A stretch of DNA of 38,847 bases from Kiritimatiellota bacterium (GTDB lineage Bacteria; Verrucomicrobiota; Lentisphaeria; Victivallales; JAADHT01), in contig JAUUYH010000001.1 in the NCBI GenBank assembly GCA_030590505.1, forward strand, positions 1 to 38,847. The letters run 5' to 3'. Each line of letters starts with the position of its first letter. Position 1 is the first letter of the stretch. A model generated the notes under the pieces. That model saw nothing but the letters and a program-made list of their open reading frames with translations. It had not been told where the DNA came from and made no database searches. Made by a program: the position numbers and the translations under genes. Positions 7,948 to 31,612 of the stretch are shown here, piece after piece.

Positions 7948-7977
7948 CTAAGCTTTGCTGAGTTTTATGCAGCGTAG

Positions 7978-8688
7978 TTACTCCATCAAATTATTTTCCG
8001 CAAAACTGAAAGATCCCTCTGTGGAGATAATAAGATGGTCAAGCACTCTTATATCCATTGCAGTCGCTGCTGTAATGATATCTCCAGTAATGCGAATATC
8101 ACTTCCAGATGGTTCAGATTCGCCACTAGGGTGATTATGGATAAGAATAATGCCTGTTGCATTGTGTTTTAGTGCATTTCTAATAATATTACGAGGATAG
8201 ATAACAACCTTATCAGTGGTTCCTTCGTTAACTATTTCATAGTTTTCAATCTTATTTCTTGCATTTATGTATATCACCATAAATGCCTCATCAACGAGGT
8301 GCCCAAGTTTTTTTCTTGCAAAGTCAAGAACATCTTTCGGGGATCTAATTGCATTTTTCTGCTGAAGTTGCATGACAAGGCTCCGTGTATCTAGTTCACG
8401 GATAAGCTTGATTAAAATTGCGGTGTTCTCGGATATGCCGGAAACCTCTAAAAGTGCTTCGGATGAGGCATTCATTACACCATGAATATTTTTAAAGTGT
8501 TCAATTAGCTGTTTTGCAAGTGGCTTGACATCTTTTCTGGGGATTGAATAGGTAAGTAAAAGCTCAAGTAGTTCGTAGTCCGCTAAGGAATCAGACGAAA
8601 GCAGTAATTTTTTACGCAATCGATCACGATGTCCATGATAATGCGGTATTTTTTTTGCTTTCTTAGGCTCGTTTTTCATATTTTTCAT
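7978..8688 (-). CDS. radC: RadC-family JAB/MPN-domain protein
   Basis: 236 aa. N-terminal HhH-like region (GHRDRLRKK...ELLELLL) and JAMM motif HNHPSGESEPSGSD near the C-terminus. Confidence 0.9.
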   Translation of the reverse strand: MKNMKNEPKKAKKIPHYHGHRDRLRKKLLLSSDSLADYELLELLLTYSIPRKDVKPLAKQLIEHFKNIHGVMNASSEALLEVSGISENTAILIKLIRELDTRSLVMQLQQKNAIRSPKDVLDFARKKLGHLVDEAFMVIYINARNKIENYEIVNEGTTDKVVIYPRNIIRNALKHNATGIILIHNHPSGESEPSGSDIRITGDIITAATAMDIRVLDHLIISTEGSFSFAENNLME

Positions 8689-8720
8689 AAAAAAAGGGTG
8701 GACCCAAAAGGGCCACCCGA
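8689..8720 (-). terminator. GC-rich hairpin plus T7 run downstream of the SWIB gene, abutting the radC ATG
   Basis: Minus strand: GGGTGGCCC-TTTT-GGGTCCACCC-TTTTTTT-ATG(radC). Confidence 0.6.
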
Positions 8721-8745
8721 TATATAAAGCATCTATTGAAGAGAT

Positions 8746-9075
8746 TTACGCTTCAATATTAGCACCGACAACTGACGCCATCTGCATCATATTAATTGTC
8801 TGTCCTTCTTTTAGAGCAGTTAGGTTAGTAACTTTTCCGCTCTTGCTTTTTGAATTTGTATTTTTGAAAATAGTCAACAGTTTTGCATCTGCAACAATAA
8901 ATTTTCCACCGTTTTCAGGTTTTCCATTTTCAGATCTAGTCTGAAGTTTATTTGCTTTGATGTAATCCCATAACTGTTTTGTAATAGCTGTTCTTGGAAG
9001 CTCTTTTTCACCAAGAAATGCTGCTAGGTCTGCTTTCAATTTTACCGGTTTGCTAAGTCCTTTTGCTTCTGCCAT
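8746..9075 (-). CDS. SWIB/MDM2-domain protein
   Basis: LKADLAAFLGEKELPRTAITKQLWDYIKANKLQ...FIVADAKLLTIF fits the SWIB domain pattern. I prefer ATG at 9075 (AAGGAGAG 5-6 nt upstream) over the track start at 9117. Confidence 0.8.
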   Translation of the reverse strand: MAEAKGLSKPVKLKADLAAFLGEKELPRTAITKQLWDYIKANKLQTRSENGKPENGGKFIVADAKLLTIFKNTNSKSKSGKVTNLTALKEGQTINMMQMASVVGANIEA

Positions 9076-9506
9076 CTTCTCTCTCCTTACTTGAGTATTA
9101 AATTTAGGAACTTTCAAGATTTTCTGAATAAAAATCCTCTCCTATGGTTCGTAAAATAACCTATATTCAAAATTTTCCAAATGCAATATAGTAGATTTCT
9201 ACTCCTTTTAGCCACTTAGCGTCAAAATTTGCGTACTTCGCAACATATTATAACTTCATAAGGCGTTGAAAAAGAACATCAACAGCGGTTTAGGAGCATC
9301 TTCAAGGAATAACTCATCCAATTGGGGAAATTCTGCTAAAATTCGGAGAAAATGTTAAAAATGAGCAGATTTTATACTCTTTTTACAGTTTCTCGGAGGA
9401 TTAATTTGACTGGAACTGCCAGTTGATATGCTTCTCGGTTGTTTTTTGGTGTTCAATTGCTTCATAATTGATCCTTTCTCTGTCTGGAGTTAGTCGCGGC
9501 TTTATG

Positions 9507-9713
9507 TCACTCTCCCAGAAACTCCTGTTCGTTTCTTAAAAATGCACAATTTCCATCTTTTAGTAAGATCGTCTCTTCATTCTCTTTTATATGACCTTGA
9601 TCTTCCCGCGCCTTCTTGGTGTCCCTCCAGAGATGTTCATGTAACCCTATGCGGTCTACTGGTTGACGTTTTAAAATATTTGATATTCGTTCGATTTCTG
9701 TCATCTTTTTCAT
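9507..9713 (-). CDS. Hypothetical 68-aa ORF, possibly a truncated gene remnant
   Basis: No Shine-Dalgarno sequence. The N-terminus MTEIERISNILKRQPVDRIG vaguely resembles N-termini of uroporphyrinogen-decarboxylase-family proteins, then stops. It sits in a 750-bp gene-poor gap. Confidence 0.25.
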   Translation of the reverse strand: MKKMTEIERISNILKRQPVDRIGLHEHLWRDTKKAREDQGHIKENEETILLKDGNCAFLRNEQEFLGE

Positions 9714-9751
9714 GAATTATGATAAAAAAAAAGGAAAATTTATTTGAGATA

Positions 9752-9779
9752 CTTGATTTACATGAGTTTCTGCTTATAG
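9752..9779 (+). promoter_or_regulatory. Putative sigma70-type promoter upstream of the ABC/glycosidase locus
   Basis: TTGATT (9752-9757), 16-nt spacer, TATAGT (9774-9779), about 97 nt upstream of the ATG at 9876. Confidence 0.3.
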
Positions 9780-9875
9780 TAAGCCTTCACGAGTTTTGGT
9801 TATTAATAATGGTTATAAAGCTTTATCCATAAAATAGGGATTCCCCCCATGACTCAAACAATGTAAATAGAATAA

Positions 9876-12800
9876 ATGAAAAACTTATATTTAAAATTTG
9901 GAATTTGCCTGGCAGTAACGTTAGTTATAATATTGCTCTTTTTCAACCTGCTCTCTTTTATAATGCGTCCTGCATTGTCGAATGAATTTGTCATGCCATC
10001 CGCAGAAAGGATTGCCGAAGTGGAAGAGTTGAGACATCCAAAGCCCCCCCCGATCATTTATCAGAAAGTTGACTATTCAGAAGGGAAAAAGGGAGCATGG
10101 TATCCTAAGGGTGAAGCTCCTATACTCAAAGAGTTGATTGCAGAGGGAAAACTTCCTCCGCTTAATGAACGTGTTCCTACAGAACCACTCGTACTTGAAG
10201 GTGTTGATCATGTTCATAACTATGGAGGGACATGGATGCGACTTGGTTCGAATGCTTCTGAAGTATATTGTGTTGCGAACAGACTTGGATATGCACATAT
10301 AGTTCGTTGGTCTCCCATGGGAAAGCCGATAGTTCCACATGTAGCTAAAAATTTTACAGTGTCTGACGATAACAGGGTCTACACTTTTGAATTACGCAAA
10401 GGAATGAAATGGTCTGATGGGCATCCTTATAATACAGATGATATTAAGTATAATTGGGAAATGGAGGAGAATGACCCAATGTTAGCAAGCTCTCCGAGTC
10501 AAGTATATCGCTTCCAGGGAAAACTTGCAAAAATTGAGTTTTTAGATAAATATAATTTTAAAATTACTTTCGATAAACCAAATCCTCTTTTTCTTCCCAA
10601 AATAGCAGGCGCTTATGGGCGTTGGCTCTGCAATTCACCCGCTCATTTCCTCAAACGGTTTCATCCCAGAATAGGTGATCAGAAACTTATAGAAAAATTA
10701 CAGGATAAATATGGCCTACCAAGTGCAAAATCCGTTTATCGAAAAATAAAAGACGTTACAAATCCTGAGCTTCCACGTATAACTCCATGGATAATAAAAC
10801 GACCTGTTAAAGGTTCACCTTCAGAAGCAGTACGTAATCCGTATTACTTTGTTGTTGATTCTGCAGGGAATCAACTGCCTTACCTTGATCGCATAATATT
10901 TACTGCTCGATCATCAAATATGATTACACTCAGTGCTGCCAGTGGTGAAGTGTCAATGCAAAATAAAAAAATAGATCCTTCGCAATATACATTATTAATG
11001 GGAAACTCTCAGAAAGAGGGGTATCAATTATATCACTGGACATCGCAAGGACGGTCAAACTTTACGATATATTTTAATTTAGAATATAAAGTGAATCCTG
11101 ATAAACCTGAGACAAAATGGCTCAAAAAAACAATTAGTTCAAAAGAGTTCAGAAGAGCTATGTCAATATCGATAGATAGACAGCGTATGATTGATTCAGA
11201 GTTTAATGGAATAGTAGAAGCTGCTCAATTATCTCCATCAAGAAGCTCTTACTTTTTTAATGAAGAAGTCTATAAATCAGCAACTGAATATGATCCTGAA
11301 ACGGCGTGTAAATTATTGGATAATCTGGGATTAAGCAAGCGTGACAGTGAGGGATATCGTACATTTCCTGACGGTTCACACATGAGTATCTATTTCTCAA
11401 TTCCTACTCCTGACGACGCAGAACGAGCTCAATTTGTAGTTGATGACTGGAAGAGAGTAGGCGTAAGAGTTATTATTAGGGTTTTAGGCTTACATTTAAT
11501 GAAGAGACGTGTTACCGCAGGTGAAGCTGAAATGTTTTTATCAAATAGCGTAATACAATTTTTCCCCTTGCGCCCTTGCTTCTCCTTTGCTCCTGGAGTT
11601 GATCTGTGGTATGAGGCTGGTGGGATGTTTGGAAGTAAAGATTCCGAATCATTAAAACACAAAGCACCACCCAAGGATTCAGATTTATATAAATCTTTAA
11701 AATACTATTCTGAAGCAAAAAAATATTCCGATCCCGCAAAACAGAAAATTTATTTGGATAAAATGTTACAAATAGTCGCTGATAATGTTTGGCAAATTAA
11801 TATTGCAACGCCACTTCCTGTTTTAGCCATTGTTAAAGATGGATTTAAAAACGTTCCTCGTGATCTCTCATTCGCCTGGTCGCATCAATCGCCAGCCAAT
11901 GGTGGAGTTGAAACTTTCTGCTGGGAAAAAGAGTATCTACAGAAAAAGAATATTTTAGAGATGGATGAGGCTGCGAAGGAGTCTATTAAATATCAGATAG
12001 TGAATACAACAACAGATAAAGTGAGTGATTCGTCTGTTGATAATTACACTCCGAAAGGAATAGGAAAACTGACTCAAGATGCAAAATCAGTAAAAGTTAG
12101 TATAGCACTAAATATTGTAAAATACCTTTTAATTGGTATTGCTCTGCTTTTTCTATCTATGGCAGCTCTGAAACACCCATACATACTTCGCCGTCTTGCA
12201 TTAATGGTACCAACTTTGTTTATTATTTCTATTTTAGTTTTTGTTGTTATTCAGCTACCACCCGGAGATTATATTGATACTAAAATAGCTGCAATGGAGG
12301 AAGTAGGTGAAGAGGTTGATGCACAGGAAATAGAACAACTTAAAGCCATGTTTTTTATTGATGACTCTATGGCAGTACGATATGCTAGATGGATGGGATT
12401 GAAGTGGTTTATTAGTTTCGATAATGAAGATAGAGGGTTACTGCAGGGGCATATGGGCCGTTCCATGCGTGACATGCGTGTAGTAAATGAACTCATTGCC
12501 GAACGAGTGATTTTAACTTTCTTCATCTCCTTAGGGACGCTATTGTTCACTTGGGCAATCGCCTTTCCGGTTGGTATATATTCAGCAGTCAAGCAATATT
12601 CATTTTTTGATTATGTGTTTACAGTTTTCGGATTTTTGGGAATGAGTATTCCAGGTTTTATTTCTGCTCTTCTTATGATGTATGCTTGTGAACGTTTTAT
12701 GGGATTTACACCGACGGGGCTGTTTTCTTCAGAATTTGGAGCTAGGCCTGACTGGAACTGGGATAAAATTATTGATCTATTAAAACATGTCTGGATACCG

Positions 12801-13205
12801 GTTATGATTATGGGAGTTGCCGGAACAGCAGGAATGATTAGAGTTATGCGTGCAAACTTGCTTGATGAACTAAAAAAACCGTATGTTATCACAGCCAAAG
12901 CCAAAGGAGTAAGACCTCTTAAACTTCTTTTTAAATATCCTGTTCGTATGGCACTCAATCCATTTGTTTCAGGAATCGGCGGAATATTCCCAAGACTCGT
13001 ATCGGGGGGAGCAATCGTAGCGATTGTTATGAGCTTGCCCACTGTTGGACCGTTGTTGCTAGAAGCTCTCCTTGTTCAGGATATGTATATGGCTGGTTCT
13101 CTTATAATGTTCTTCAGTCTGCTCGGAATATTCGGAGTACTTGTAAGTGATCTTCTCCTACTTGTACTGGATCCGCGTATTAGATTCGGAGGGGGTACAC
13201 GATGA
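9876..13205 (+). CDS. Fusion protein: signal-anchor + family-5 (Opp/Dpp/Nik-type) substrate-binding domain + extra TM helix + OppB/DppB-like ABC permease
   Basis: 1109 codons with no interruption. SBP family-5 signature region YTFELRKGMKWSDGHPYNTDDI. Hydrophobic helix IALNIVKYLLIGIALLFLSMAAL at nt 12102-12170. Canonical OppB N-terminus KHPYILRRLALMVPTLFIISILVFVVIQLPPGDY from nt 12171. C-terminus LDPRIR. Confidence 0.85.
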   Translation: MKNLYLKFGICLAVTLVIILLFFNLLSFIMRPALSNEFVMPSAERIAEVEELRHPKPPPIIYQKVDYSEGKKGAWYPKGEAPILKELIAEGKLPPLNERVPTEPLVLEGVDHVHNYGGTWMRLGSNASEVYCVANRLGYAHIVRWSPMGKPIVPHVAKNFTVSDDNRVYTFELRKGMKWSDGHPYNTDDIKYNWEMEENDPMLASSPSQVYRFQGKLAKIEFLDKYNFKITFDKPNPLFLPKIAGAYGRWLCNSPAHFLKRFHPRIGDQKLIEKLQDKYGLPSAKSVYRKIKDVTNPELPRITPWIIKRPVKGSPSEAVRNPYYFVVDSAGNQLPYLDRIIFTARSSNMITLSAASGEVSMQNKKIDPSQYTLLMGNSQKEGYQLYHWTSQGRSNFTIYFNLEYKVNPDKPETKWLKKTISSKEFRRAMSISIDRQRMIDSEFNGIVEAAQLSPSRSSYFFNEEVYKSATEYDPETACKLLDNLGLSKRDSEGYRTFPDGSHMSIYFSIPTPDDAERAQFVVDDWKRVGVRVIIRVLGLHLMKRRVTAGEAEMFLSNSVIQFFPLRPCFSFAPGVDLWYEAGGMFGSKDSESLKHKAPPKDSDLYKSLKYYSEAKKYSDPAKQKIYLDKMLQIVADNVWQINIATPLPVLAIVKDGFKNVPRDLSFAWSHQSPANGGVETFCWEKEYLQKKNILEMDEAAKESIKYQIVNTTTDKVSDSSVDNYTPKGIGKLTQDAKSVKVSIALNIVKYLLIGIALLFLSMAALKHPYILRRLALMVPTLFIISILVFVVIQLPPGDYIDTKIAAMEEVGEEVDAQEIEQLKAMFFIDDSMAVRYARWMGLKWFISFDNEDRGLLQGHMGRSMRDMRVVNELIAERVILTFFISLGTLLFTWAIAFPVGIYSAVKQYSFFDYVFTVFGFLGMSIPGFISALLMMYACERFMGFTPTGLFSSEFGARPDWNWDKIIDLLKHVWIPVMIMGVAGTAGMIRVMRANLLDELKKPYVITAKAKGVRPLKLLFKYPVRMALNPFVSGIGGIFPRLVSGGAIVAIVMSLPTVGPLLLEALLVQDMYMAGSLIMFFSLLGIFGVLVSDLLLLVLDPRIRFGGGTR

Positions 13206-14317
13206 GTAAAAAAACAAAAACTACTGCCAGCTACCTTAGTCAGTGGCAATTAATTAGACTGCGCTTTTTTAAACATAAACTTGCCGCAGCATCTCTCTTT
13301 ATTGTCGTTGGACTATATGTTGTCGCAGGATTTAGTGAGTTTTTTGCAACTTACTCTACCGACATGATGAACATAAACCAGCAGTATAATCCTCCAATGC
13401 CGGTAAAATTTAATTTTTCAGACGGTCTATATGTTAATAAAGTAAAGCGAAACATTGATCCTGTCTCTTTTCATAAAGAGTATACCGAAACAGATGAAAA
13501 AATAGGCCTTACTTTTTTTGGAAAAGGACATTCGTACAAACTATGGGGAGTAATTCCCTGCTCTAGGCATCTATTGGTTGCAACTAACACAACTGAAGAA
13601 ATAGGTACGGATAAAGAGACGTTTTTTTATCTTTTTGGTAGCGACAAATATGGCCGTGATATTTATACCCGGCTGATTGCAGGAGCTAGGGTCTCACTCT
13701 CTATCGGTCTTATCGCCATCGCAATAAGCTTTGTATTGGGTATCGTTATAGGTGGTATTTCCGGATATGTTGGAGGAAAAACTGATCTGATTATTCAGCG
13801 AATTATTGAAATTATCGGAGGGTTCCCAAAGCTTCCGCTATGGATGGCTATTGCCGCTGCAATGCCACAGGATTGGTCGCCGTTAACTGTATATTTCTGT
13901 ATCACAGTGGTTCTCAGTTTAATGGGTTGGACGGGTCTTGCCAGAACTGTAAGAAGTAAACTTCTTCAATTACGGGAAGAGGATTACGCTGTTGCTGCCT
14001 CTCTTTTGGGCGCAAGTCACAGTCGTATAATTTTTAAACATCTGATTCCAGGATTCACCTCGCATATTATTGTTACCTTGACCATGCGTGTGCCTGGTAT
14101 GATTTTAGGTGAGACCTCGTTGAGCTTTCTAGGTCTTGGTCTGCGACCACCAGTTGTTAGTTGGGGAGTGATGTTGCAGGATTGTATGAATATGCAGGCA
14201 GTCGCCCTTTATCCGTGGTTGCTATTGCCACTCTTTTTTATCGTTGCATCAGTATTATCGTTGAACTTTTTAGGAGACGGACTCAGGGACGCAGCAGATC
14301 CATATTCTGCAAAATAA
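13202..14317 (+). CDS. ABC transporter permease, OppC/DppC-like
   Basis: FGSDKYGRDIYTRLIAGARVSLSIG motif, N-terminal periplasmic loop, C-terminal LGDGLRDAADP. ATGA overlap with the upstream stop. Confidence 0.9.
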   Translation: MSKKTKTTASYLSQWQLIRLRFFKHKLAAASLFIVVGLYVVAGFSEFFATYSTDMMNINQQYNPPMPVKFNFSDGLYVNKVKRNIDPVSFHKEYTETDEKIGLTFFGKGHSYKLWGVIPCSRHLLVATNTTEEIGTDKETFFYLFGSDKYGRDIYTRLIAGARVSLSIGLIAIAISFVLGIVIGGISGYVGGKTDLIIQRIIEIIGGFPKLPLWMAIAAAMPQDWSPLTVYFCITVVLSLMGWTGLARTVRSKLLQLREEDYAVAASLLGASHSRIIFKHLIPGFTSHIIVTLTMRVPGMILGETSLSFLGLGLRPPVVSWGVMLQDCMNMQAVALYPWLLLPLFFIVASVLSLNFLGDGLRDAADPYSAK

Positions 14318-14347
14318 CAAATAAAACAACTTGTCAAAAGATAAATT

Positions 14348-15397
14348 ATGTCAGAAAAAATAAAAAATGTATTAGAGATCAGCAATTTAAAGGTCTCATT
14401 CTTTACGGAAGAGGGTGAGATTCGTGCTGTGAATAATGTCAACTTTTCAATCCCAAAAGGAAAAATCATGGCCTTAGTTGGCGAGTCAGGATGTGGAAAA
14501 AGTGTGACATCCTATTCCATTTTGCGTTTAATTCAAAAACCTGGAAAGATTCTGAATGGTGAAATTCTATTTCATCCTTCGGATGGAAAAAAACTTGATA
14601 TATTAAAGCTTGATGAGAAATCTGATAAACTTTTTAATTTACGTGGCGGAAAAATTAGTATGATTTTTCAAGAACCAATGACAGCTCTGAGCCCTGTCCA
14701 TACGGTCGGAAATCAAATCTCTGAAGCAATCCTTTTACATCAAAATGTTTCAAAAAAAGAAGCCCGTAAAAAGACAATTGATATGCTTTCCAAGGTTGGT
14801 ATTCCAGGAGCCGAACAGCGTGTAGATCAGTATCCGTTTGAATTAAGTGGTGGAATGCGCCAGCGTGTTGTTATTGCAATGGCTCTGGTTTGTAATCCTG
14901 AACTCCTGATTGCAGATGAACCGACAACCGCACTTGACGTAACTATCCAGGCACAGATTTTAAAACTGATGAAGGAGTTGCAGAAGGATTTAGGCACATC
15001 AATTCTGCTAATTACGCATGATTTGGGAGTTGTTGCGCAAGTCGCAGATGAAGTTGCTGTAATGTATCTTGGCAGGGTTGTGGAAAGATCTGATGTTTAT
15101 ACAATTATGAAAAATCCGCGTCACCCATACACTATGGCTCTTTTAAGATCGCTACCAAGCTTAAGTATGGATAAAGCAAAACTGCCTTCAATAAAAGGCA
15201 GTGTACCGTCATTACAGGAGATCCCCGAAGGTTGCCCGTTCCATCCAAGATGTCCTCATTATAAAGAAGATGTGTGCGATATAGGCACTCCTCCAGACTT
15301 GGTTTCGATCGGAAAAGATCACGATGCAGCATGCCTAAGAGTAGACGATATTGAATTAATCGAAAAAAAGAGTAAACATATAGGGAGTTTTTATTAA
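14348..15397 (+). CDS. ABC transporter ATP-binding protein, OppD/DppD-like
   Basis: Walker A GESGCGKS, signature LSGGMRQR, Walker [13 protein letters not shown], Opp-type C-terminal extension HPYT...CPFHPRCP...C. Confidence 0.95.
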
Positions 15398-15429: not shown

Positions 15430-16497
15430 ATGAAAGAAAAATCCTGTAACAAATTAGAAGAGTCTAAAGTGGCTAGAGACGCAGTTGATAGTTCCAGTTT
15501 GGAACAGCCATTACTACGCGTGCGTGGTTTGTGCAAATACTTCCCTATTTTTAATAAAGGAATTATGCGCAAGCAGATAGGAATAGTTAAGGCTGCTGAT
15601 GGTATAAGTTTTGACCTTATGCCTGGTGAAACTCTTGGCATAGTAGGAGAGAGTGGATCAGGTAAAACTACGGTCGGAAGAACCATTTTAAGAGCACTTG
15701 ATCCCACGGATGGGGAAGTTAGCTTTTTTTGCGATAATGACATTATTGATTTGGCAACAGTTCCACGCAAAAGGTTGAAAAAATTACGTACTAAAATGCA
15801 GATGATTTTTCAGGACCCTTTTTCTTCATTAAACCCAAGAATGACTGTTCGGGATATCGTTGCAGAGCCTTTAATAATCCACAAGATGGCCAAAGGGAAG
15901 GAGTTAGAGGATAAAGTTACAGAGATGTTGATCAAGGTAGGATTGCAACCAGAACACAAAATGCGTTATCCTCATGCATTTTCAGGAGGCCAGCGTCAAC
16001 GTATCGGGATTGCCCGGGCATTAATTATGAAGCCATTGTTGGTTGTTGCCGACGAAGCGGTTTCTGCTCTTGATGTTTCTGTTCAGGCACAGGTAATTAA
16101 TCTCATGAAAGATCTGCAGCAGGATCTTGGACTTACTTATATTTTTATTGCTCATGATTTGAGTGTAGTTAAGCATATCTGTGATAAAGTTGCCGTTATG
16201 TATGCCGGAAAAATCGTTGAACTTGCTAAGACCGAACAACTATTTAAAGATCCTAAACATCCATACACTAGAGCTCTTTTACGAGCTGTACCTAGCCCAG
16301 ATCCGAACATAAAAATGGAATTCGGACTTGAAGGTGAAGTCGCCGATCCAGGAAAATTACCTCCTGGATGTGCATTTCATCCACGGTGCCGAGAATGTTT
16401 TGATAAATGCAAATCAGAAATACCTGAACTTCTTCAACTGAAAAAGGGTGGCCTTCTGTCATGTCATATTAATTCTGAAAACAAAAAGGAGAAGTAA
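15430..16497 (+). CDS. ABC transporter ATP-binding protein, OppF/DppF-like
   Basis: Walker A GESGSGKT, signature FSGGQRQR, Walker B LLVVADEAVSALD, C-terminal HPYTRALL...CAFHPRCRECFDKC. Confidence 0.95.
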   Translation: MKEKSCNKLEESKVARDAVDSSSLEQPLLRVRGLCKYFPIFNKGIMRKQIGIVKAADGISFDLMPGETLGIVGESGSGKTTVGRTILRALDPTDGEVSFFCDNDIIDLATVPRKRLKKLRTKMQMIFQDPFSSLNPRMTVRDIVAEPLIIHKMAKGKELEDKVTEMLIKVGLQPEHKMRYPHAFSGGQRQRIGIARALIMKPLLVVADEAVSALDVSVQAQVINLMKDLQQDLGLTYIFIAHDLSVVKHICDKVAVMYAGKIVELAKTEQLFKDPKHPYTRALLRAVPSPDPNIKMEFGLEGEVADPGKLPPGCAFHPRCRECFDKCKSEIPELLQLKKGGLLSCHINSENKKEK

Positions 16498-17717
16498 TGA
16501 ATAAAGAAGATTTTTTTAATACAGTAAATAATCTGCCCGCATGGGACACACATAATCATCTAGATGGCAGTACACATTTATCTGCTCAGAATTTTTTGGA
16601 TATAGGTCATTATTTTTGGTTCTGTCGAGAACTTAATGCCGTTGGTTATCCATTTAGTGGAGTAGGAAAACTACCAGAATCTGAAAAACTGAATTCTGCA
16701 ACGTTTATTGATGCTTTAGATAAGGGGCGCAATACTTATTGGAATCAGACCGTACGTACTTCCATTAAAGAATTATTTGATATAGAACTGAAAGATGTCA
16801 ATAGCATTAAAGCCCTTAATGAAAAAATTGCGGTAACTGCTGCTGATACACAATGGGCTGAAACTGTATGTAAAAAAGGTAATATTGCAAAGATCACTAT
16901 CATTCCGACCTATAAAGAAAACGGGCTTGAAACAATTAAGGATCGTCACTATTACTACAAGATATTTAACCCCATAAAAGATGCGGAACTCGAAGCCGTA
17001 TTGAGCTCGGAAAATCAGTTGGATGCCGCAAAGCAATTAATTGAAGCAAAGCAGGAAGAGTTGACCGATTTTTCCAATTCAGGTATTTCAGTATTGCGTT
17101 GTAATTTTCCTTTTGATTCCGATAATGGATTGGCTTCAGACTCTCCAAACTTGACTCAAACAGGAAATACGCCGCGCGATATAAAGCAATTCGTCGGACA
17201 TGGAGTATATAATGCTGCCAATGAGATGAAATTACACTTGCAGATCTTTGTTGGAATGGCTTCATTCCCTGATCAGATGATAAGTGGTGCTCATGGTCAC
17301 TGTTCATTAAATGACACTAAAAGAATTTTTAATATGTCGGGAATCTTTGATATGTACAATAATATCACATTTGAGATTATTAATGCATCGGAACTTAATT
17401 CTCTCGACCTTGTGCAAATGGCAAGAATCTTTAAAAATGTTATTCCTGGCGGACTCTGGTGGTTTAATTATCGCGGAAGCGTCTTTCAGTCTAACATGCA
17501 ATATCGTTTCGAGGCTCTCCCTGCATGTCGCTCTTCCATCTTGGCTACAGATGCAAGATGTATTGAATGGGCTTATATCAAAACCCGCTTTGTCAAAAAA
17601 CTACTTGCTCAATTTTTATGGAATCAGATAGAAAATGGATGGGCTGATGAAGAAATTGCGATCTACGCAGCAAAACAGTGGCTCTATTCTACTGCAGATC
17701 AATATTATACTGCTTAA
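16497..17717 (+). CDS. Glucuronate (uronate) isomerase-like amidohydrolase-fold protein
   Basis: DTHNHL...IGHYFWFCRELNAVG parallels E. coli UxaC DYHCHL...GDHYKWRAMRTNG. C-terminal GGLWWFNYRG...ATDARC parallels GSGWWFNDQK...LTDSRS. About 60 aa shorter than UxaC as I recall it. TAATG overlap with the OppF-like stop. Confidence 0.7.
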   Translation: MNKEDFFNTVNNLPAWDTHNHLDGSTHLSAQNFLDIGHYFWFCRELNAVGYPFSGVGKLPESEKLNSATFIDALDKGRNTYWNQTVRTSIKELFDIELKDVNSIKALNEKIAVTAADTQWAETVCKKGNIAKITIIPTYKENGLETIKDRHYYYKIFNPIKDAELEAVLSSENQLDAAKQLIEAKQEELTDFSNSGISVLRCNFPFDSDNGLASDSPNLTQTGNTPRDIKQFVGHGVYNAANEMKLHLQIFVGMASFPDQMISGAHGHCSLNDTKRIFNMSGIFDMYNNITFEIINASELNSLDLVQMARIFKNVIPGGLWWFNYRGSVFQSNMQYRFEALPACRSSILATDARCIEWAYIKTRFVKKLLAQFLWNQIENGWADEEIAIYAAKQWLYSTADQYYTA

Positions 17718-17812: not shown

Positions 17813-19504
17813 ATGAATGAAGAAGAAATAAAACAAATTATCTCAAAAATGAGTATAGAACAGAAAATTGGAGCTGTCTTTACCTTTGGATTCAATGGAA
17901 CTGTCATTACACCCAAGCATATTGAAGCAATTGAAAAATTTCATTGCGGTGGACTGAGAATTACCCCGAATGGAAGAAGTTTTGGATCTTATGTGGATCC
18001 AAAAAGTAAGCGTACGGTGGTAAAAATTGATGAAGGACGCATTTTCTATAAAAATGATAATCCACCAGTCGTATCAGCACGGCAATTTTCAGAAATATTT
18101 GATAAACTGCAGGCAATCGCAAAAAAACGTCCACTAGGACTACCTTTGCATTTCTCCTATGATCAGGAAAGTGGTTCAGGTAATGTTCCTTTTTCCGGAG
18201 TTAAAACTTTTCCTCCTTTTATGGGCTTAAAAGCGACTGATAACATCGAAATTGCTCGTAAGGCCGCTCTTTATCAAGGCAAGCAATCTAGAGCTATTGG
18301 ATATCATATATGCCACTCACCTGTTGTAGATGTAAATACAAATTCGGTTAATCCTGAAATCAATACCAGAAGTTTTTCTGATAGGGCCGAAGAGGTTGCA
18401 GCGTGGGCTGCTGAATCTTGTAAAGGATACAAAGAAGCCGGAATCGTTGCGACTGCAAAACATTTCCCTGGACGTGGAGATTCAGATACTGACGCTCACT
18501 ACTCTGTTCCTGTTATTAATGTTGACAAAAAGACTCTTTTTGAACGAGAACTTTTACCGTATCGTCTATTAATTGAACAAGTAGATCTGCCCTCAATTAT
18601 GACTGCACATTCAATGTACCCTCAAATTGATCCAGATACGATTTCAACTGTTTCTAAAAAAATTGTAACTGGTATTTTACGTGATGAACTTGGATTCGAT
18701 GGAGTTATTACAACTGATAGCATGACGATGGGTGCATTGGCTGAACGTTATGGTGTTCCTGATGCATGTGCGAGGGCTCTGGTCGCTGGATCAGATCTAA
18801 TTTTAATGAAGGCCCAGAATAATCTGATTGATGCGTCATGCAGTACTGTTATGGAGTATCTAGATGCAGGTACGCTTACGGAAAAGGATCTCGATGAAAA
18901 GATTTTTAGAATTCTGCGTATGAAAAGCAATTATGGGATTTTTGGTAAGACTTCTGATATCGATGAATTTGAAAAACTCTCAAAAGATAAAGAGTTGATT
19001 GAGCTAGTTAGCGAAACTGCAAGATGTACCACTCAACTTGTCAAGAATGAAGCTGATGTGCTACCCTTAAAAAAAGATTCAAAAGTTCTTATTATCGAAC
19101 AAACTGCGGCGAATACAAATACACTTGAAGAACATAATGGGATCTTTTTTGAGTCATGCATGCAATATACAAATGATATTACATACTTGGAAGTAGGTTC
19201 AACCTATGATGATGGCGATATCGAACAGATTAGAAATGCAGTTACAGGTTACGATACAATTCTTGTAACTAATTTCTTCAATTATCGTCGTGGACAAAAT
19301 ACATGGTTGATTGAAGAACTTTGTGCACTGAAAGATAAAAATATCATTTTAATAGCAAACACCCCTTACAAAATATCAATTCCAAAAAATTCAGAAACAA
19401 TAGTAATTACCTATGGTTACAGTCGTGAATCAATGGAAGCTGCAGCTGGCACAATCTTCGGAACAGTAGAACCAGGAGCAATCACACCTGTTTCAAATGC
19501 GTAA
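17813..19504 (+). CDS. Glycoside hydrolase family 3 protein (NagZ/beta-glucosidase-like), no signal peptide
   Basis: KHFPGRGDSDTDAHY and GVITTDSMTMGAL (nucleophile Asp region). N-terminus MNEEEIKQIISKMSIEQKIG is not hydrophobic. Confidence 0.9.
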   Translation: MNEEEIKQIISKMSIEQKIGAVFTFGFNGTVITPKHIEAIEKFHCGGLRITPNGRSFGSYVDPKSKRTVVKIDEGRIFYKNDNPPVVSARQFSEIFDKLQAIAKKRPLGLPLHFSYDQESGSGNVPFSGVKTFPPFMGLKATDNIEIARKAALYQGKQSRAIGYHICHSPVVDVNTNSVNPEINTRSFSDRAEEVAAWAAESCKGYKEAGIVATAKHFPGRGDSDTDAHYSVPVINVDKKTLFERELLPYRLLIEQVDLPSIMTAHSMYPQIDPDTISTVSKKIVTGILRDELGFDGVITTDSMTMGALAERYGVPDACARALVAGSDLILMKAQNNLIDASCSTVMEYLDAGTLTEKDLDEKIFRILRMKSNYGIFGKTSDIDEFEKLSKDKELIELVSETARCTTQLVKNEADVLPLKKDSKVLIIEQTAANTNTLEEHNGIFFESCMQYTNDITYLEVGSTYDDGDIEQIRNAVTGYDTILVTNFFNYRRGQNTWLIEELCALKDKNIILIANTPYKISIPKNSETIVITYGYSRESMEAAAGTIFGTVEPGAITPVSNA

Positions 19505-19644: not shown

Positions 19645-22600
19645 ATGATTATTTTTGATTGTCCATCTTGTGGAACCAAATATGAATTAGATGATGCTCA
19701 TGCTAGCAGCAAAGCTGCTTGTGAGATCTGTAAAAATAAATTTTTAGTGCCCGCTAACAGCAATGAAAAGGCTACGCTGATTCAGGCAACCCCGCCTCAA
19801 TCAACTTCAGTTAACATCAATAAACGAGAAATGACTGATTCTGAAAATAACCAAGAATCTATTCAATCTAGTGAGGAAGTGTTTTCCGAAGAAAATACTA
19901 CATCAACCAAGACGCGACTACAGAAGGTAATTCAAGCCATACTTGGGGCTTCAAGATCACCTAATCGGAAACTGATTGGCACAAGTTCAATAATAATTGT
20001 AGGTCTGATTATATTATTTGTAGTTTTTATTATGATCAAACAAGCATCAACTTCATCACCTTCATCTCCTTCATCTCCTTCATCACCTGGAAAAAAATAT
20101 ACAATTAAACTTACGCAAGTTGAGGACAACTCAGAAATTTTGTTTAAGCAGGCAAAAGAGTGGTGTGATCAAAATACAGAGGAATACGAAGGAATTGCAA
20201 TGCGCTACAGGCGGGTTATTCAAGAGTGCGATGGCACTATTTATGCTGAGAAAGCTGAGAAATTGCTGGCTGATATTTTATTAAAACAGAATCAGGCCAT
20301 CCAAGCCGTGCTGGTTCAGATAAAAGAAAAAGGCGACCTGCTTGTAAGCGAAGAGAAGTATAATCAAGCCATTGAATACTACGAAAATTACAATGGCAAA
20401 TTTGTTCAAAAGACAAATAGTGATCGCATGAAATTTATTGCTGATATAAAAACAATTCTTGAAAAGAAGAGAGTCGCGGAAGAGCAAATAAGGCTTGAAC
20501 AACAGAGATGTAAAGATCTTTTAATTGATTCAGTTGTCACTGTTCTAATACAGAAAGGCCCGAACGATGCACTAGGGGAAATTGATGCAAAATTGATAAC
20601 TTATGATTTCCTTAAAGATGATGATGAGATAAAGGACATATATGAATTATTGAAAAAAAATATAAATATCCGAAGTCTTGTGCAGAGTGCCTTAAAAGAA
20701 CAAATTGGAAAAACCTTAACTTTGCAGTTAAAGAACGGTTCCCAAAAGACACTGAAAATTTTCAATGTTACAGAAAACAATGTGCTTGAAGGAAAAAAGA
20801 GAATTGGAGCATCGTCATTCATTACTCTCAAATTGCCACTAAATAAATTATCAAAAGCAGAGCAATTTAAGCTAACGGGCATCTCCTCCAATACTCCTGA
20901 GGTTAATCTTGGAAAAGGTCTTTACGCATTAAAAAACAAAGTACATTCTCTTTCGAAAAAGTATTTTGAACAAGTCGGAACTCTTCTGCAGCCAAAGCTT
21001 TTATCAGTAATAGAAACTTTATCTGATAACCAAATAGAACAATCTGCGGAAAAAGATTTTTACTATGTATTAAAATTTGCAAAAATAGATGTAACTGTAA
21101 AATTTGATGTTGATAAATATGTTGCCGCTTTGGGCCCCCCTTTAAGCTCATCTATAATAAAACAACTTAAGAGCAAGACAAAAGCCTTTATGGAAACATA
21201 TTCAACAACTGAATTTATAAAAACAGCTGATCCTGTTATTCAGAAAATTTTGGCAATGAAAAGTGAGTTGAAGAATTCCTATACCACCAGGAAGTATAGG
21301 CCGGAAACAAGTGCGAGTATCGCAAGTTTTGAATATGCATATTTTGATAATGCACAGAGCAAAATGGTCTATATTCCATATTCTAAAACTGAAGATTGCA
21401 TCTCTGATTTTTCATCTTGTGGCTATAAAGGTGGAGGAATAGCACTACCAGATGTACCTATTGTTATAACTTTAAATCCAAGTGGTAGCGGTAAGGATGA
21501 TACCGCACATATTCAGAAAGCAATTGACAAGATTGGTGCAATGAATCTTCAAAAAAATGGATTCCGCGGAACCCTGCTACTCAAAAAAGGCGTTTACAAC
21601 ATAACAGGAACCCTCAAGATTGTTAAAAATGGCATTGTCTTGCGCGGAGAAGGTAATGGCAAAAACGGGACGGTATTATTTGCAACTGGGGAGAAAAGGG
21701 ACTCATTGATCATTGTTGATTCTGGGAAGAGACCAACTCCTAGAAAAAATCCGAGTAAAATTACCGACTTGGTTGTTCCTGTTGGAGCAAAAAGTTTTAA
21801 TGTTGCCTTGATTAGCCAATTAAAAGTAGGAGATCATATAGCCGTTGTTCGACATGTCAATAATGCATGGATTAAGAAAATAGGTATGGATAATATTCCT
21901 AAACGAAGTGATGGAAAGCCAATCACGAACTGGACAGCAAGACGTTATAATATTTCTTATGATCGAGTAATTACTGCAATAAGGGGAAAACAAATAACGA
22001 TCAATGCACCTATAGTCTGTGCGATAGATGAACAATGGGGAAGTGGCACAGTTTTTAAATTTGATCCATATAGAGGTAGAAATATCGGTATTGAAAACAT
22101 ACGTGCTGTTTGCAAATTTGATGCAGGAAAAGTTGAAACAGCTGGAGGCAGAACTCACTATGTAGATGAAAATACATGTAGTCGCGTGATACAAATGGAC
22201 TATGTGAAAAATAGCTGGGTACGTGATGTCATATCTATTCACTTTAACCATTTACTGCAAATTGGAAAAGGGGGGCAATTTATAACGATACAGGATTGTG
22301 CATATCTTAAGCCAGTATCTGCCGTAACTGGAGGCCGACGTTATGCTTTTTCCATTAACGGACAACAAAATTTGATTCAACGTTGTTATGCTGACTCCTC
22401 ACGACATGCATATTCTTACGGTAGCAGTGTGCCAGGGCCTAATGTCTTTTTAGATGTTCTTTCAACGAATAATTACGCCTCTTCTGAACCACATCAACGG
22501 TGGGCTACTGGAGGTTTATACGACAATTGTTCTGGCGATTTAGCAATAATAAATCGTGGCAATATGGGGACAGGCCATGGATGGGCTGGGGCTAATTTTG

Positions 22601-22926
22601 TCGCATGGAATACAGAGGGTAGTATCATAGTTCAAAGTCCACCTACAGCATGCAATTATTCCATAGGGCATGTAGGTGACAAACTAAAAGTATCTTTTGA
22701 GGGACTAGATGGTTTATGGGGCTGTTTTGGCGAGCATGTTAAGCCACGCAGTATCTATCTTACGCAACTGTGGGAACGTCTTGGAGGGAATGCGGTGGGG
22801 GATATTACGACGAACTCACAACGCAAGGGGAATATTTATTCGGAATTAAAGCAGAAATATGCAATAGATGGAGATCAAATATGGGGAGCTGGTATTGCTC
22901 CGGAAGATCCATACTCTAATAAATAA
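19645..22926 (+). CDS. Zn-ribbon / single-TM / Ser-Pro stalk / helical region / right-handed beta-helix (pectate-lyase-3-like) protein
   Basis: CPSC...CEIC (Cys 6, 9, 26, 29). TM at about residues 110-131. [30 protein letters not shown]...[18 protein letters not shown] from about nt 21440, typical of the N-terminal cap of pectate_lyase_3 / GH28-GH55-like beta-helices. AAGGAG 8 nt before the ATG. Confidence 0.75.
20053..20088 (+). repeat. 4 x 9 bp in-frame tandem repeat (TCATCWCCT) encoding (SSP)4
   Basis: Units at 20053-20061, 20062-20070, 20071-20079 and 20080-20088, read directly. Confidence 0.9.
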
Positions 22927-22937
22927 GGACATGGCAA

Positions 22938-25187
22938 ATGAATAGCATGGGAACAGAAAACAAAATTTTCTTTAACAAGCCCGCAAAAAAGTGGATTGAA
23001 GCATTCCCCCTTGGGAATGGTAGGCTTGGAGCAATGGTTTTTGGTAAAACTGCACCAAGATCACAGGGGACTGAAAAGATTGCCCTTAATGAAGATAACA
23101 TATGGTATGGTGGCAAGCGTGACAGGCTGAATGCAGACACAAATAAATATATTTGCGAAATTCGCAAACTTCTCCTGGAAGGAAAAACAGAAGAAGCGAG
23201 TAAACTTTCTCGTATGGCATTTACTTCCAATCCGAAAAGGCAGGGATCGTACCTTCCTGCAGGTGACTTATGTATTAGCTTTGATAATCATTACGGAGAG
23301 GTGTCAAACTATAAAAGAGAACTTGATCTTGAGACAGCCGTTGCAACTGTGAAATATGACTTGAACAATGTTAAATATTCACGTACACATTTTGCCAGTG
23401 CTGTTGATCAGGTGGTTGTTATCCGTATTGAAACTGACTCGGACTCTTCTCTGGGGATGAGGGTAAATCTTTCCCGGCAGCAGTTTGAAGGGCTTTCGGG
23501 GGCAGATGGAGATGACACAGCATATCATAACTTCCAAGCTGGCCCTGATGGCGTAAACGTCTGCATGATGGTAAAAGCTCTCTCTGATTGTGGTAAAACT
23601 AGGACTATTGGTGATTTTGTAGATATAACTGAATCGTCGGCAGTCACTTTGCTACTTTCAATAAATACTGATATCAAAGGAGATGATCCTGAAAAGCTTT
23701 GCCGCGACCAGTTAGCACAAGCATCTGCGAAAGGATTTGCTGCACTGCTAGAAGATCATATCTGCGAATATCGCAAATATTACTCAAGGGTGGAACTACA
23801 ACTGGAAGCCGATGAAGCGATTTCTAAATTGCCAACAAATGAGCGTTTAGAGAGAATTGCGAATGACGCAGAAGATGTAGGAATGGTGGCCCTCTATTTT
23901 AATTTTGGACGTTACCTGCTTATCTCATGCAGCCGACCAGGAACCATGGCTGCAAATCTTCAGGGGATATGGAACGATAAGATGCTACCACCTTGGGGAT
24001 CAAAATATACGATTAATATTAATTGCCAGATGAACTATTGGCCTGCTGAAGTTTGTAACTTAAGCGATTGCCACCAACCACTCTTTGACTTAATAGAAAG
24101 AATGAGAGAAAGCGGCCGCGTAACTGCCCGTAAACTCTATCAATGTAAGGGGTTTGTTGCGCATCATAATACAGATAATTTTGCGGATACTGCACCAGCG
24201 GATCCCACAGCTACTGCTGCTATATGGAATATGGGGGCAGCATGGCTGAGCATGCACTTATGGGAACATTATCTTTTTTCATCTGATAAGGTTTTCCTTG
24301 CTGATGTAGCGTACCCAACAATGAAAGAAGCTGCAGAATTTCACCTAGAAAATATGTTTGAAGATGCTGAGGGGGAATTGATGACAGGCCCTTCAGTTTC
24401 ACCTGAAAACACCTATGTAAATGACCATGGCATTATCAGTACAATTTGCCTCTCTCCGACTATGGACAGAGAAATCCTACTGGAACTTTTCCAGGCTATA
24501 ATCGATGCAGACACTATTCTTGAACAAAACGATCCATTTGTGGAGCAGCTTAAAGCTGCAATGGCAAAAATCCCACCCGTCAGCATTGGAAAACATGGAC
24601 AGGTAATGGAATGGCTGAAAGATTATGATGAACCCGAGCCCGGCCACCGACATATCTCCCATCTCTACAGTTTATATCCCGGAAATAACTTCTCACAATC
24701 AAAAACTCCAGAACTATTTGCGGCGGCTGATATCACATTGCAGCGCAGACTCTCACACGGAGGAGGTCATACAGGTTGGAGCAGAGCATGGATAATCCTA
24801 TTCAGAGCTAGGTTAAAGCAAGGAGATGAGGTTTACGAAAACCTGAAGGCACTTTTTGCGGTCTCAACATGTCCAAACCTTTTTGACACACATCCTCCAT
24901 TCCAGATAGATGGAAACTTCGGTGCAACTGCGGGAATCGCAGAAATGTTGATACAAAGTCATGAAGATGAAATAACTCTTCTACCAGCACTACCAAAAGA
25001 GCTTCATACAGGTAGTGTAAAAGGCTTGCGTGCTCGTGGAGGTTTTGAACTCGATTTTGATTGGAAAAATGGGGATCTAGTCTCTGTTAAAGTAAAATCT
25101 CTCGCAGGGAATAACTTAAAACTTCGCATACATGGAGAGAAGGAATATCTCTTAAATAGAGATACCATCCAGGGGGAAATTTACTGA
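22938..25187 (+). CDS. Glycoside hydrolase family 95 (alpha-L-fucosidase type), no signal peptide
   Basis: N-terminal [26 protein letters not shown], then [16 protein letters not shown] and GHTGWSRAW, motifs I associate with GH95. Confidence 0.9.
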
Positions 25188-29800: not shown

Positions 29801-30090
29801 AATTCTACTTTTACAACAGACATCCCCATCCCAGATGTCGAGCGCACCTTTTCAACTCCTGGGACACCATTTAGAACACGCTCCAATGGCAACGTTACCT
29901 GCTGTTCTATGTCATCAGGAATCATTCCATGAGCTTCTGTCATAATAACAACTGTTGGCCGATTCAAGTCCGGCAGAACATCCATAGGCATTTGCGTAGA
30001 TATGTATGTACCGATTGCAGCGACAATCAATGCGACAGCCACAACAAACATCCGATTTTTCAAAGAAAATCCTATAATATTTTTAAGCAT
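26890..30090 (-). CDS. Heavy-metal efflux RND transporter, CusA/CzcA family
   Basis: 1066 aa with 12-TM RND layout. The TM4 motif LGGLAVAIGALVDDAIVGVEN resembles the CusA-type AIGxxxDxAxxxxEN rather than the CzcA-type DFGxxxDGA. Confidence 0.95.
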   Translation of the reverse strand: MLKNIIGFSLKNRMFVVAVALIVAAIGTYISTQMPMDVLPDLNRPTVVIMTEAHGMIPDDIEQQVTLPLERVLNGVPGVEKVRSTSGMGMSVVKVEFAWDTDIYRNRQIVAEKLQIAKAILPKNVIPQMAPISSVMGQIQLVGISSKSGKTSPEALRSLVDYQLKYEILSIPGVSKVIVAGGSPRQLQVLMDAEKLRSFSVTVEEVAEAVHASNMNESAGFLNIGTKAPLITVTGLLKSKEELEQAVVRPDPLRPVCISDVAEVKFGPAQIKTGEAGVDGKLGVIMVVLKQPGFDTMSLTEEIDKQLAAMQKDLSDDIIIDAHLFSQAEFIKRGLDNVFDAIRDGGIMVVLVLFIFLMNWRTSFITLTAIPLSIAVTAIIFKNAGLSINTMTLGGLAVAIGALVDDAIVGVENCFRRLRQNEKLPEKQRQSALNVVFEASCEVRNPILIGTLIVVIVYIPLFFLSGMPGKLFVPIGIAYIVSVMASLVVSLTVSVALCYYMLPGHLGKPGSQDTWIVRKLKIIVGKTISFSLDHAYSILLTLLFMVAVGVVLILNTGRNFLPAFNEGTAQVNVVLPPDTGLDTSVKFGRKAEEVFLSVKGVKHVSRRTGRAVGDEHAHGVNQSDCIITFDESSERPQKEIIEEIEAKLKKELPGVGIAVGQPLEHLISSMLSGTKRDVAIKIYGPGMEKLRSIAKEVEALAGHIEGIKDLAIEQQVLVPTVIVDPNREMLKRHGITVEQVNENVGLSLGSESISRMIKGRYSYPIVVRLRAEDRKNIKDVENIYLRNDKGELIRLKDVADLKMNLITNNIKHENIGRRIAVQHNISGRSLSEIVNDLNIALAPVRKRLAKEGTGYYIKIGGQYEAQKKANRKILILSIFSLAAMIFILYLHFKSINLSLQVLLQIPQAFTGAVAYIIISGQDMSIATLVGFIALGGIASRNAILLLDHYLHLALKEKIPFGKKMIIQAGQERMIPVLMTALTSGIALIPIAMSPNQPGKEILYPVATVIIGGLFSSTLLDFFATPATFWLFGRKSVERMIASSDVHIAEALTTHIEGELNKNTNEF

Positions 30091-30189
30091 AATTAAATCC
30101 TTATTTAATAAGTTAATAGTACTTGTCGTATTTGAAGCTTAAGGTATCTATTTGATACATAAAAACAAAAAATAACCGACAGAGAATAC

Positions 30190-31590: not shown

Positions 31591-31612
31591 TTTATAACTC
31601 CTATTGTATTGG

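Follow-up and report, generated by a model that had tools for sequence, protein, structure and literature searches.

The tethered binding domains of GlnPQ and OpuA have been key tools for understanding the mechanism of ATP-binding cassette (ABC) importers. In GlnPQ of Lactococcus and the related amino-acid importers of Gram-positive bacteria, small domains of cluster F, frequently paired in tandem, precede the permease in a chain that starts with a cleaved signal peptide, and the homodimeric permease gathers four receptors into each complex. To our knowledge, all fused cases studied have small receptors, and most are homodimeric and Gram-positive. The OpuA, OpuF and EgtUV importers (OTCN) also rely on a covalent tether and a dedicated anchoring helix, and in the occluded state a single domain of the OpuA type is docked onto the permease (PMC7673798). 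Binding proteins of Gram-positive bacteria are lipoproteins or are fused to the permease, and those of Gram-negative bacteria are usually soluble in the periplasm (PMC6906923); fusions of a binding protein to a permease have been seen more often in Gram-positives (PMC8144104). Here, we describe such a fusion in the Opp/Dpp family of importers, encoded at 9876..13205 on the forward strand of a stretch of 38,847 nucleotides (positions 1 to 38,847 of contig JAUUYH010000001.1, hereafter the window) from a Kiritimatiellota bacterium. A single open reading frame (ORF) joins a binding protein, a linker, an extra transmembrane helix (TM0) and an OppB permease in one protein of 1109 amino acids, and this fusion has evolved and does not stem from faulty assembly.

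The closest functional analogue is the MalE-MalF fusion of Bdellovibrio bacteriovorus (Licht et al. 2019, as described in PMC6906923), which resembles the window fusion as a sugar-type importer of a diderm bacterium with the binding protein fused to one of the two permeases in a 1:1 ratio. It belongs to the CUT1/maltose family and its MalE of 388 amino acids is 26% identical to that of E. coli (PMC6906923), whereas the family of the window protein has a family-5/cluster C domain of ~620 residues and extends over many phyla. With GlnPQ, the window protein shares an N-terminal binding domain in one chain with the permease and a receptor tethered to its own translocator; it differs in its one large domain, which belongs to cluster C/family 5 and not to the cluster F of GlnPQ and OpuA, in a presumed heterodimer of OppB and OppC, in an N-terminal helix that is probably retained and in its diderm hosts. 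The OpuA, OpuF and EgtUV importers differ further: the permease precedes the binding domain, compatible solutes and ergothioneine are imported by a homodimer with two receptors, and the fold family of the permease is an unrelated one. By analogy, the tether and TM0 of the window protein may be equivalent in role to the anchoring helix of OpuA (PMC7673798).

The frame runs for 1109 codons from its ATG without interruption. Pfam finds on the one chain SBP_bac_5 at residues 152-561 (E 6.6e-50), BPD_transp_1_N at 769-882 and BPD_transp_1 at 897-1103 (E 1.6e-24). In a sequence search of the PDB, the binding-domain homology spans residues 70-674 (Thermotoga maritima 5ipw, E 8e-84; SPH1118 of Sphingomonas sp. 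A1, E 7e-66), and residues 769-1104 align with the solved permeases DppB (8z1v), OppB (8z21) and Mycobacterium tuberculosis 8j5q, and also with the DppB/OppB-type structure 8wd9. From its start, the chain consists of an N-terminal hydrophobic helix (residues 2-30, 9879..9965), a segment specific to the fused family between this helix and the canonical start of the binding domain (residues ~31-69, 9966..10082), the family-5/cluster C substrate-binding domain (residues ~70-685, 10083..11930), a flexible tether (residues ~686-742, 11931..12101), TM0, predicted to run from outside to inside (residues 743-765, 12102..12170), and the OppB/DppB-type permease domain (residues 766-1109, 12171..13202), which opens with the turn KHPYILRR, predicted to be cytoplasmic; all lie on the plus strand. 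The signature motif of the family lies inside the Pfam match and holds the family-invariant residues R174, W179, S180, D181, G182 and D189. The stop codon overlaps the OppC start (ACA CGA TGA / ATG AGT, sharing ATGA), with the ribosome-binding site GGAGGGGG just 5' of the overlap. The preliminary description of this DNA had claimed the uninterrupted frame, a hydrophobic signal-anchor, family-5 hallmarks with a near-perfect signature, the additional helix at 743-765, a complete OppB-type permease from residue 766 and the ATGA overlap, and had proposed the Pfam scan for both domains on one polypeptide; each of these readings is borne out, the cleavage status of the N-terminal helix being a matter of prediction.

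Together with its neighbours, the fused subunit carries the marks of the Opp/Dpp/Nik group (PepT, TC 3.A.1.5), namely a cluster C binding domain, permeases of the OppB and OppC types and two oligo_HPY ATPases. The best NCBIfam match is Opp4B at 203 bits, under the equivalog cut-off of 450 bits; no equivalog was reached among OppB, DppB, NikB, GsiC and Opp1-4B or among OppA, DppA, NikA and CntA, the binding-protein models falling far under their cut-offs. No exact match to the 1109-residue protein was present among the public records searched.

The fused design is conserved. From a search of a database of 5.8 billion proteins, the best 120 relatives were taken, which stem from NCBI, JGI, ENA and Logan assemblies, and both domains are present in all of them at 43-51% identity; 119 have 1072-1174 amino acids, and one record named partial has 1065. 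Junction features were read from an alignment of 30 relatives and residue conservation from one of 119. All 30 have TM0 as a strongly hydrophobic helix of 19 residues (Kyte-Doolittle 1.77-3.15), followed by [RKCM]HP[YF] directly in 28 and after three to four more residues in two. The stretch from E679 to H767, which comprises the tether and TM0, varies from 55 to 122 amino acids and is unconserved in sequence outside TM0. Across the 119 sequences, P768, R773 and the EAA-loop residues D997-E998...G1011 are invariant, and at least 90% conserve H767. Further, when residues 620-880 were searched as a junction query against 1.84 billion representatives at 50% identity, 26 matched at E<=1e-30 and 214 at E<=1e-10, and those of full length crossed the junction; in sequence space the family is thus compact, though it has many members. 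A shorter junction query (residues 600-800) gave no scored match, not even to the protein itself, and hence no number of fused proteins.

A scan of one genome per species gave at least 600 stretches that matched; the best 78 distinct loci among them were retained and classified by ORF calling. Among these best 78, 59 hold full-length single fused ORFs and two (L063 and L070) hold fused ORFs cut by the contig end. In another (L055) the fusion is broken by assembly frameshifts, with the tether, TM0 and RHPYIGRR all readable; its first scoring as a split locus was rejected. The 61 fused loci come from Verrucomicrobiota, Planctomycetota, Lentisphaerota, Kiritimatiellia, Spirochaetes, Gemmatimonadaceae, Armatimonadota, Fibrobacterota and Raymondbacteria. 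The design is present in at least seven phylum-level groups, and one of its carriers is the cultured Victivallis vadensis (L059, 1123 amino acids).

The remaining 16 of the best 78 have adjacent separate genes at 32-35% identity (tblastn), a binding protein of ~640-725 amino acids followed by an OppB of ~330; separate ORFs are listed in 14 of them, and two (L071 and L078) were assigned by frame analysis only. They come from Rhizobium leguminosarum, Rhizobium sp. CCGE 510, Ponticoccus, Nioella, Antarctobacter, Candidatus Moduliflexus and several Chloroflexota. In these loci, the binding protein has an ordinary cleavable signal peptide or a lipobox and ends at the equivalent of ~residue 685, where the tether starts, and the OppB proteins begin with M-x-x-[YF]-I-x-R-R-L-L, without the HPY motif. 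These unfused sisters, among which we count SPH1118, 5ipw and the Rhizobium, roseobacter and Chloroflexota operons, share with the window protein the binding-protein family, the length, the aromatic stacking residues and the gene order (binding protein, OppB, OppC, OppD, OppF), with 25-31% identity for 5ipw and SPH1118 in Foldseek. They differ in their separate genes, in a cleavable signal (Proteobacteria) or lipobox (Chloroflexota), and in having no tether, TM0 or equivalent of residues 31-69. The fused forms are found in diderm phyla, and the monoderm relatives in Chloroflexota are unfused lipoproteins. In a neighbour-joining tree of the concatenated binding and permease domains, a distance-based and midpoint-rooted tree of the top matches only, all 63 fused sequences group in a single clade, whose sister comprises all 14 split sequences, which is consistent with a single fusion event followed by spread.

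On balance, an oligosaccharide is the substrate that we favour for the fused transporter, and the "peptide" label is probably mistaken. In a Foldseek search of the PDB, 5ipw ranks first, followed by SPH1118, MelB of Agrobacterium and the Vibrio chito-oligosaccharide binders, with peptide, nickel and opine binders only after these; the TM-score to galacturonate-bound SPH1118 (7veu) is 0.89, with a root-mean-square deviation of 2.9 Å. The likeness to SPH1118 and 5ipw in sequence and fold is full-length and takes in the extra segment at the C terminus. The nearest solved relatives with known ligands all bind sugars: pectin oligomers for SPH1118, raffinose, melibiose and galactinol for MelB, and chito-oligosaccharides for the Vibrio proteins. 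SPH1118 shows no thermal shift with yeast extract or tryptone, and R57, R438 and W594 are its key ligand residues (PMC9314435). The stacking pair F592 and W594 of SPH1118 is conserved in the window protein as F666 and W668. On the same strand as the transporter lie two glycosidase genes, one of glycoside hydrolase (GH) family 3, with N and C domains in Pfam and nearest to beta-N-acetylglucosaminidases (17813..19504; PDB 6k5j, E 2e-59), the other of family GH95 (22938..25187; Glyco_hydro_95_cat, E 8e-174). Neither has a hydrophobic N-terminal signal sequence, which fits the import of an oligosaccharide followed by its breakdown in the cytoplasm, and the substrate possibly contains fucose and N-acetylglucosamine. 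The closest homologue (51% identity) sits between GH2 and GH9 genes, and another relative adjoins MGH1-like and GH32/GH43/BNR genes. Among 100 ORFs flanking related loci are one L-arabinose isomerase, three alpha-L-fucosidases, two GH43 enzymes, two sulfatases, four xylose-isomerase-like barrels, three GFO/IDH/MocA oxidoreductases, and two LacI-type and three AraC-type regulators.

Some observations qualify this reading. The flanking genes are heterogeneous across the family and include M16 peptidases (4/100), the acid-binding R438 of SPH1118 is replaced by Pro, and R57 aligns to N135, one residue off the conserved R136. These two changes leave the ligand class loosely constrained; a sugar ligand is likely, not necessarily an acidic one. 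The preliminary description had placed the transporter with the peptide, opine and nickel importers, as would its Opp/Dpp annotation, with the glycosidase neighbours then being coincidental. All four subunits do match Opp/Dpp/Nik models, and the closest solved protein, 5ipw, was deposited without ligand as an 'oligopeptide-binding protein' (PMC9314435), which, with the M16 peptidases, lends this assignment some weight. Yet every peptide, nickel and opine equivalog falls far below its cut-off, the sugar ligands of the nearest relatives, the indifference of SPH1118 to yeast extract and tryptone and the GH3 and GH95 genes of the same gene string point the other way, and most genes flanking the relatives are carbohydrate-active; an importer of peptides, nickel or opines is thus unlikely, and an oligosaccharide is the likelier substrate.

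The orientation of the chain in the membrane was read from hydropathy, charge and a structural model. Kyte-Doolittle peaks fall at 8-26/30 (N-terminal helix), 747-765 (TM0, hydropathy 2.33) and 774-792 (the first OppB helix, TM1), followed by the remaining OppB helices. The turn KHPYILRR between TM0 and TM1, eight residues long, is strongly positive, the loop 793-872 is net negative and the EAA loop 991-1033 net positive, the pattern expected with the binding domain outside and OppB in its normal orientation with the N terminus inside. These features fit a chain with its N terminus inside, the binding domain outside and the permease N terminus inside again, a topology inferred by heuristics and the model, and they agree with the preliminary description, in which one extra membrane crossing fixed the topology. 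AlphaFold2, run on the single fused chain with the alignment of 119 relatives, predicts helices at 2-30 (predicted local distance difference test, pLDDT, 83-96), 731-765 (TM0) and, after a tight turn, 768-793 (TM1). In the model, the binding domain is well ordered (pLDDT 95-97 from residue 61) and residues 714-741 are disordered (pLDDT <50), at a mean pLDDT of 84.6.

The N-terminal hydrophobic helix is present in all 30 aligned relatives, and the net charge ahead of its hydrophobic run is positive in 93% of the 119. The run ends in W-x-x-R-P and not in a small-x-small cleavage site, with P32 conserved in at least 90%. Because the cleavage motif is missing and the helix is conserved, it is probably an uncleaved signal-anchor with a cytoplasmic N terminus, and the binding domain would then be tethered at both ends. 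Moreover, matches to the query start at residues 74-80 in 14 of the 16 unfused loci and at residue 44 in the two Rhizobium loci, mostly at 1-60 in fused loci and at residue 70 in the 5ipw alignment; residues ~31-69 are therefore specific to the fused family. They are conserved from about R53, and V65, D66, Y67 and G70 are each conserved in at least 90%.

Proteolytic separation of the halves after insertion is conceivable: the protein could be made as one chain and then be cleaved at its N-terminal end or within the linker, leaving the binding protein free or anchored at one end. The disordered and variable linker would in principle be accessible to proteases, and the N-terminal signal of GlnP is reportedly cleaved. 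In addition, the uncharged hydrophobic run, at 23 residues, is no longer than the genuine signal peptides of the unfused sisters, and its length does not separate the fused family from them. However, the N terminus bears the family W-x-x-R-P ending in place of a cleavage site, its helix at 2-30 is predicted with high confidence, and a helix crossing from outside to inside, as TM0 would, has the wrong orientation for signal peptidase I. Simple release of the receptor would also give little reason to keep an added transmembrane helix across phyla, and we regard processing as distinctly improbable. As for docking, the pTM (predicted template modelling score) of the model is high, at 0.83, and is no proof of a native docking pose, the chain having been modelled without OppC.

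An assembly or sequencing artefact, in which a lost stop or a frameshift joined neighbouring oppA and oppB genes, has a negligible chance of being correct: unfused relatives do have a binding-protein gene immediately upstream of oppB and frame errors do occur in metagenome-assembled genomes (loci L055, L021 and L075), but the same full-length ORF recurs in independent assemblies from many projects and phyla, the junction is no intergenic read-through, given its conserved TM0 and a [RK]HP[YF] motif without counterpart in unfused OppB N termini, and the fused forms make up a distinct clade, in keeping with the preliminary description, which had preferred an evolved fusion to a frameshift.

We consider it quite probable that the fused protein is the specificity-plus-channel subunit of an Opp/Dpp (PepT) type I ABC importer, most likely for oligosaccharides, with a cluster C domain joined to the N terminus of OppB. 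This proposal builds on the observed architecture, conservation, spread and homologies, to which are added a predicted topology, an uncleaved anchor, a heterodimeric stoichiometry and a sugar substrate. The chain would cross the membrane with eight helices, the anchor, TM0 and six OppB helices, starting from a cytoplasmic N terminus; after the anchor would come the periplasmic binding domain of ~620 residues, the tether of ~55 residues, TM0 leading back to the cytoplasm, the positive turn and OppB. The fused OppB would pair with a separate OppC (13202..14317, +; Pfam OppC_N and BPD_transp_1), translationally coupled through the ATGA overlap, and with ATPases of the OppD type (14348..15397, +) and the OppF type (15430..16497, +), both with ABC_tran and a C-terminal oligo_HPY extension in Pfam. 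The cysteine-rich oligo_HPY tails of these ATPases end in AACL in the former and in GCAFHPRCRECFDKCK...SCH in the latter, and presumably resemble the Fe-S-binding C terminus reported for OppD of M. tuberculosis.

Exactly one permanently tethered binding domain would thus serve each transporter. It would take up the substrate, close, dock on the periplasmic face of OppB/OppC and trigger ATP-driven import, after which the oligosaccharide would be trimmed in the cytoplasm by GH3 and GH95, which are encoded in the same string of genes. A heterodimer with one receptor is proposed because of the separate OppC gene, of what is understood of type I importers and of the solved Opp/Dpp complexes; a homodimeric fused subunit with two or four receptors, of the GlnPQ/OpuA kind, is not what the locus encodes, OppC being a separate, coupled gene, though the stoichiometry itself is a prediction. 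The likely benefits would be a fixed 1:1 stoichiometry, a very high local concentration of the receptor, a receptor that is neither lost nor diluted in the periplasm, and freedom from cross-talk in genomes rich in paralogues.

Several fused genes stand without a transporter of their own. No OppC, OppD or OppF homologue lies within the analysed locus (<=8 kb on each side) of the fused genes in L006, L010, L012, L013, L023, L058 and L075, which were individually checked, and the classification table adds L015, L016, L018, L024, L027, L035 and L043; L079/L080 belong here too. Complete genomes with such orphans include OY829953.1, OZ245769.1 and CAXXNP010000002.1. These orphans often adjoin glycosidase genes, occur especially in Opitutales and also in an uncultured metagenome lineage, and can be present in several copies per genome, for example three on contig CBDANS010000007.1. 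In L023, two intact fused genes stand in tandem (7948-11232 and 11592-14876) with 83% identity in the binding part and 94% in the permease part, and the receptor half therefore diverges faster. L021 (7947-14605) and L075 (4431-11225) were rejected as intact tandems, one copy in each being broken by a stop or frameshift, and L023 is the only intact pair; in L021, an intact fused copy is followed by a single OppC-OppD-OppF set. Given orphans beside glycosidases without OppC, OppD or OppF within 8 kb, and several copies in some genomes, we tentatively raise the rather doubtful idea that the fused gene is an exchangeable specificity cartridge, several fused half-transporters sharing one OppC-OppD-OppF core encoded elsewhere. 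If true, the covalent link would tie every receptor to the OppB it belongs with, and this would be a novel means of multiplexing an ABC importer. Combined with a binding domain fixed at its two ends, it could be an adaptation of diderm bacteria of the Planctomycetes-Verrucomicrobia-Chlamydiae (PVC) group that degrade glycans.

In the window, the genes from OppC to GH95 share one strand, and the junctions between them are short or overlapping. A protein of 406 amino acids (16497..17717, +), distantly related to 'Amidohydrolase 2' (PDB 4i6v, E 1.7e-9) and to uronate isomerases (E 5e-5), has a weak Pfam UxaC match and an HxH motif near its N terminus; its start codon shares one base with the stop codon of OppF, and its translation is therefore probably coupled to that of the transporter. 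A protein of 1093 amino acids with an N-terminal zinc ribbon (CPSC...CEIC) is encoded at 19645-22926 (+); nothing in the PDB matches it, its Pfam matches are all sub-threshold and include a pectate-lyase-like beta-helix, and a 33%-identical homologue occurs in locus L001, a fused relative. Upstream of the fused gene, ~750 bp (9118-9875) hold no ORF of at least 80 amino acids; by eye, a small minus-strand ORF ending near 9713 is possible, and on the contig of the closest homologue, a small DUF2442 gene occupies the matching position. A promoter and terminator scan gave fewer promoter-like sites than shuffled sequences, and a site at 9753-9780 (+) is no better than chance.

Elsewhere in the window, the stretches 26890-33010 (-) and 36535-38517 (+) encode a resistance-nodulation-division (RND) efflux set, comprising an AcrB-type pump, a membrane-fusion protein and a TolC-type outer-membrane efflux protein, and, further along, a GH97 glycosidase. 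The TolC-type protein and the AcrB pump indicate that the cell has an outer membrane and is therefore diderm. The PurF encoded in the window shares 65-72% identity with proteins of Lentisphaeria metagenome-assembled genomes and up to 92% with metagenome proteins. A small SWIB/MDM2-domain protein is encoded at 8746-9117 (-); this domain is uncommon among bacteria and characteristic of the PVC group, in agreement with the Lentisphaeria placement from PurF.

The fused proteins are already present in public databases under generic names, for example NQU42603.1, MCD4823265.1, MBI4977277.1, MBN1436589.1 and HUU21012.1, where they are called 'ABC transporter permease subunit' or, at JGI, given a double COG name. 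A full-text literature search found no paper on a fusion of a binding protein to a permease in the Opp family, absence there being no proof of absence. The preliminary description had left room for the architecture to prove common and already characterised: common it is, and no study of it was found. It had cited GlnPQ and OpuA as precedents and had known of no characterised example in the Opp family; the MalE-MalF fusion of Bdellovibrio was overlooked. The architecture is new only as uncharacterised, the idea of a tethered binding domain being established by GlnPQ, OpuA and MalE-MalF, and the fusion is apparently a widespread, unstudied Opp-family variant of this known design.

Overall, the family sets the largest class of binding proteins (~620 residues here) on a presumably heterodimeric Opp-type translocator, and does so in outer-membrane bacteria, whose binding proteins are usually soluble and periplasmic (PMC6906923). 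It would offer a natural single-receptor Opp-type system for structural work, and the fixed 1:1 stoichiometry together with the orphan copies raises questions on how receptors and translocators are matched. The "oligopeptide/permease" annotations of many such proteins, and the metabolic inferences derived from them, are probably wrong, and the family seems to serve PVC bacteria that degrade glycans as a major device for sugar uptake.

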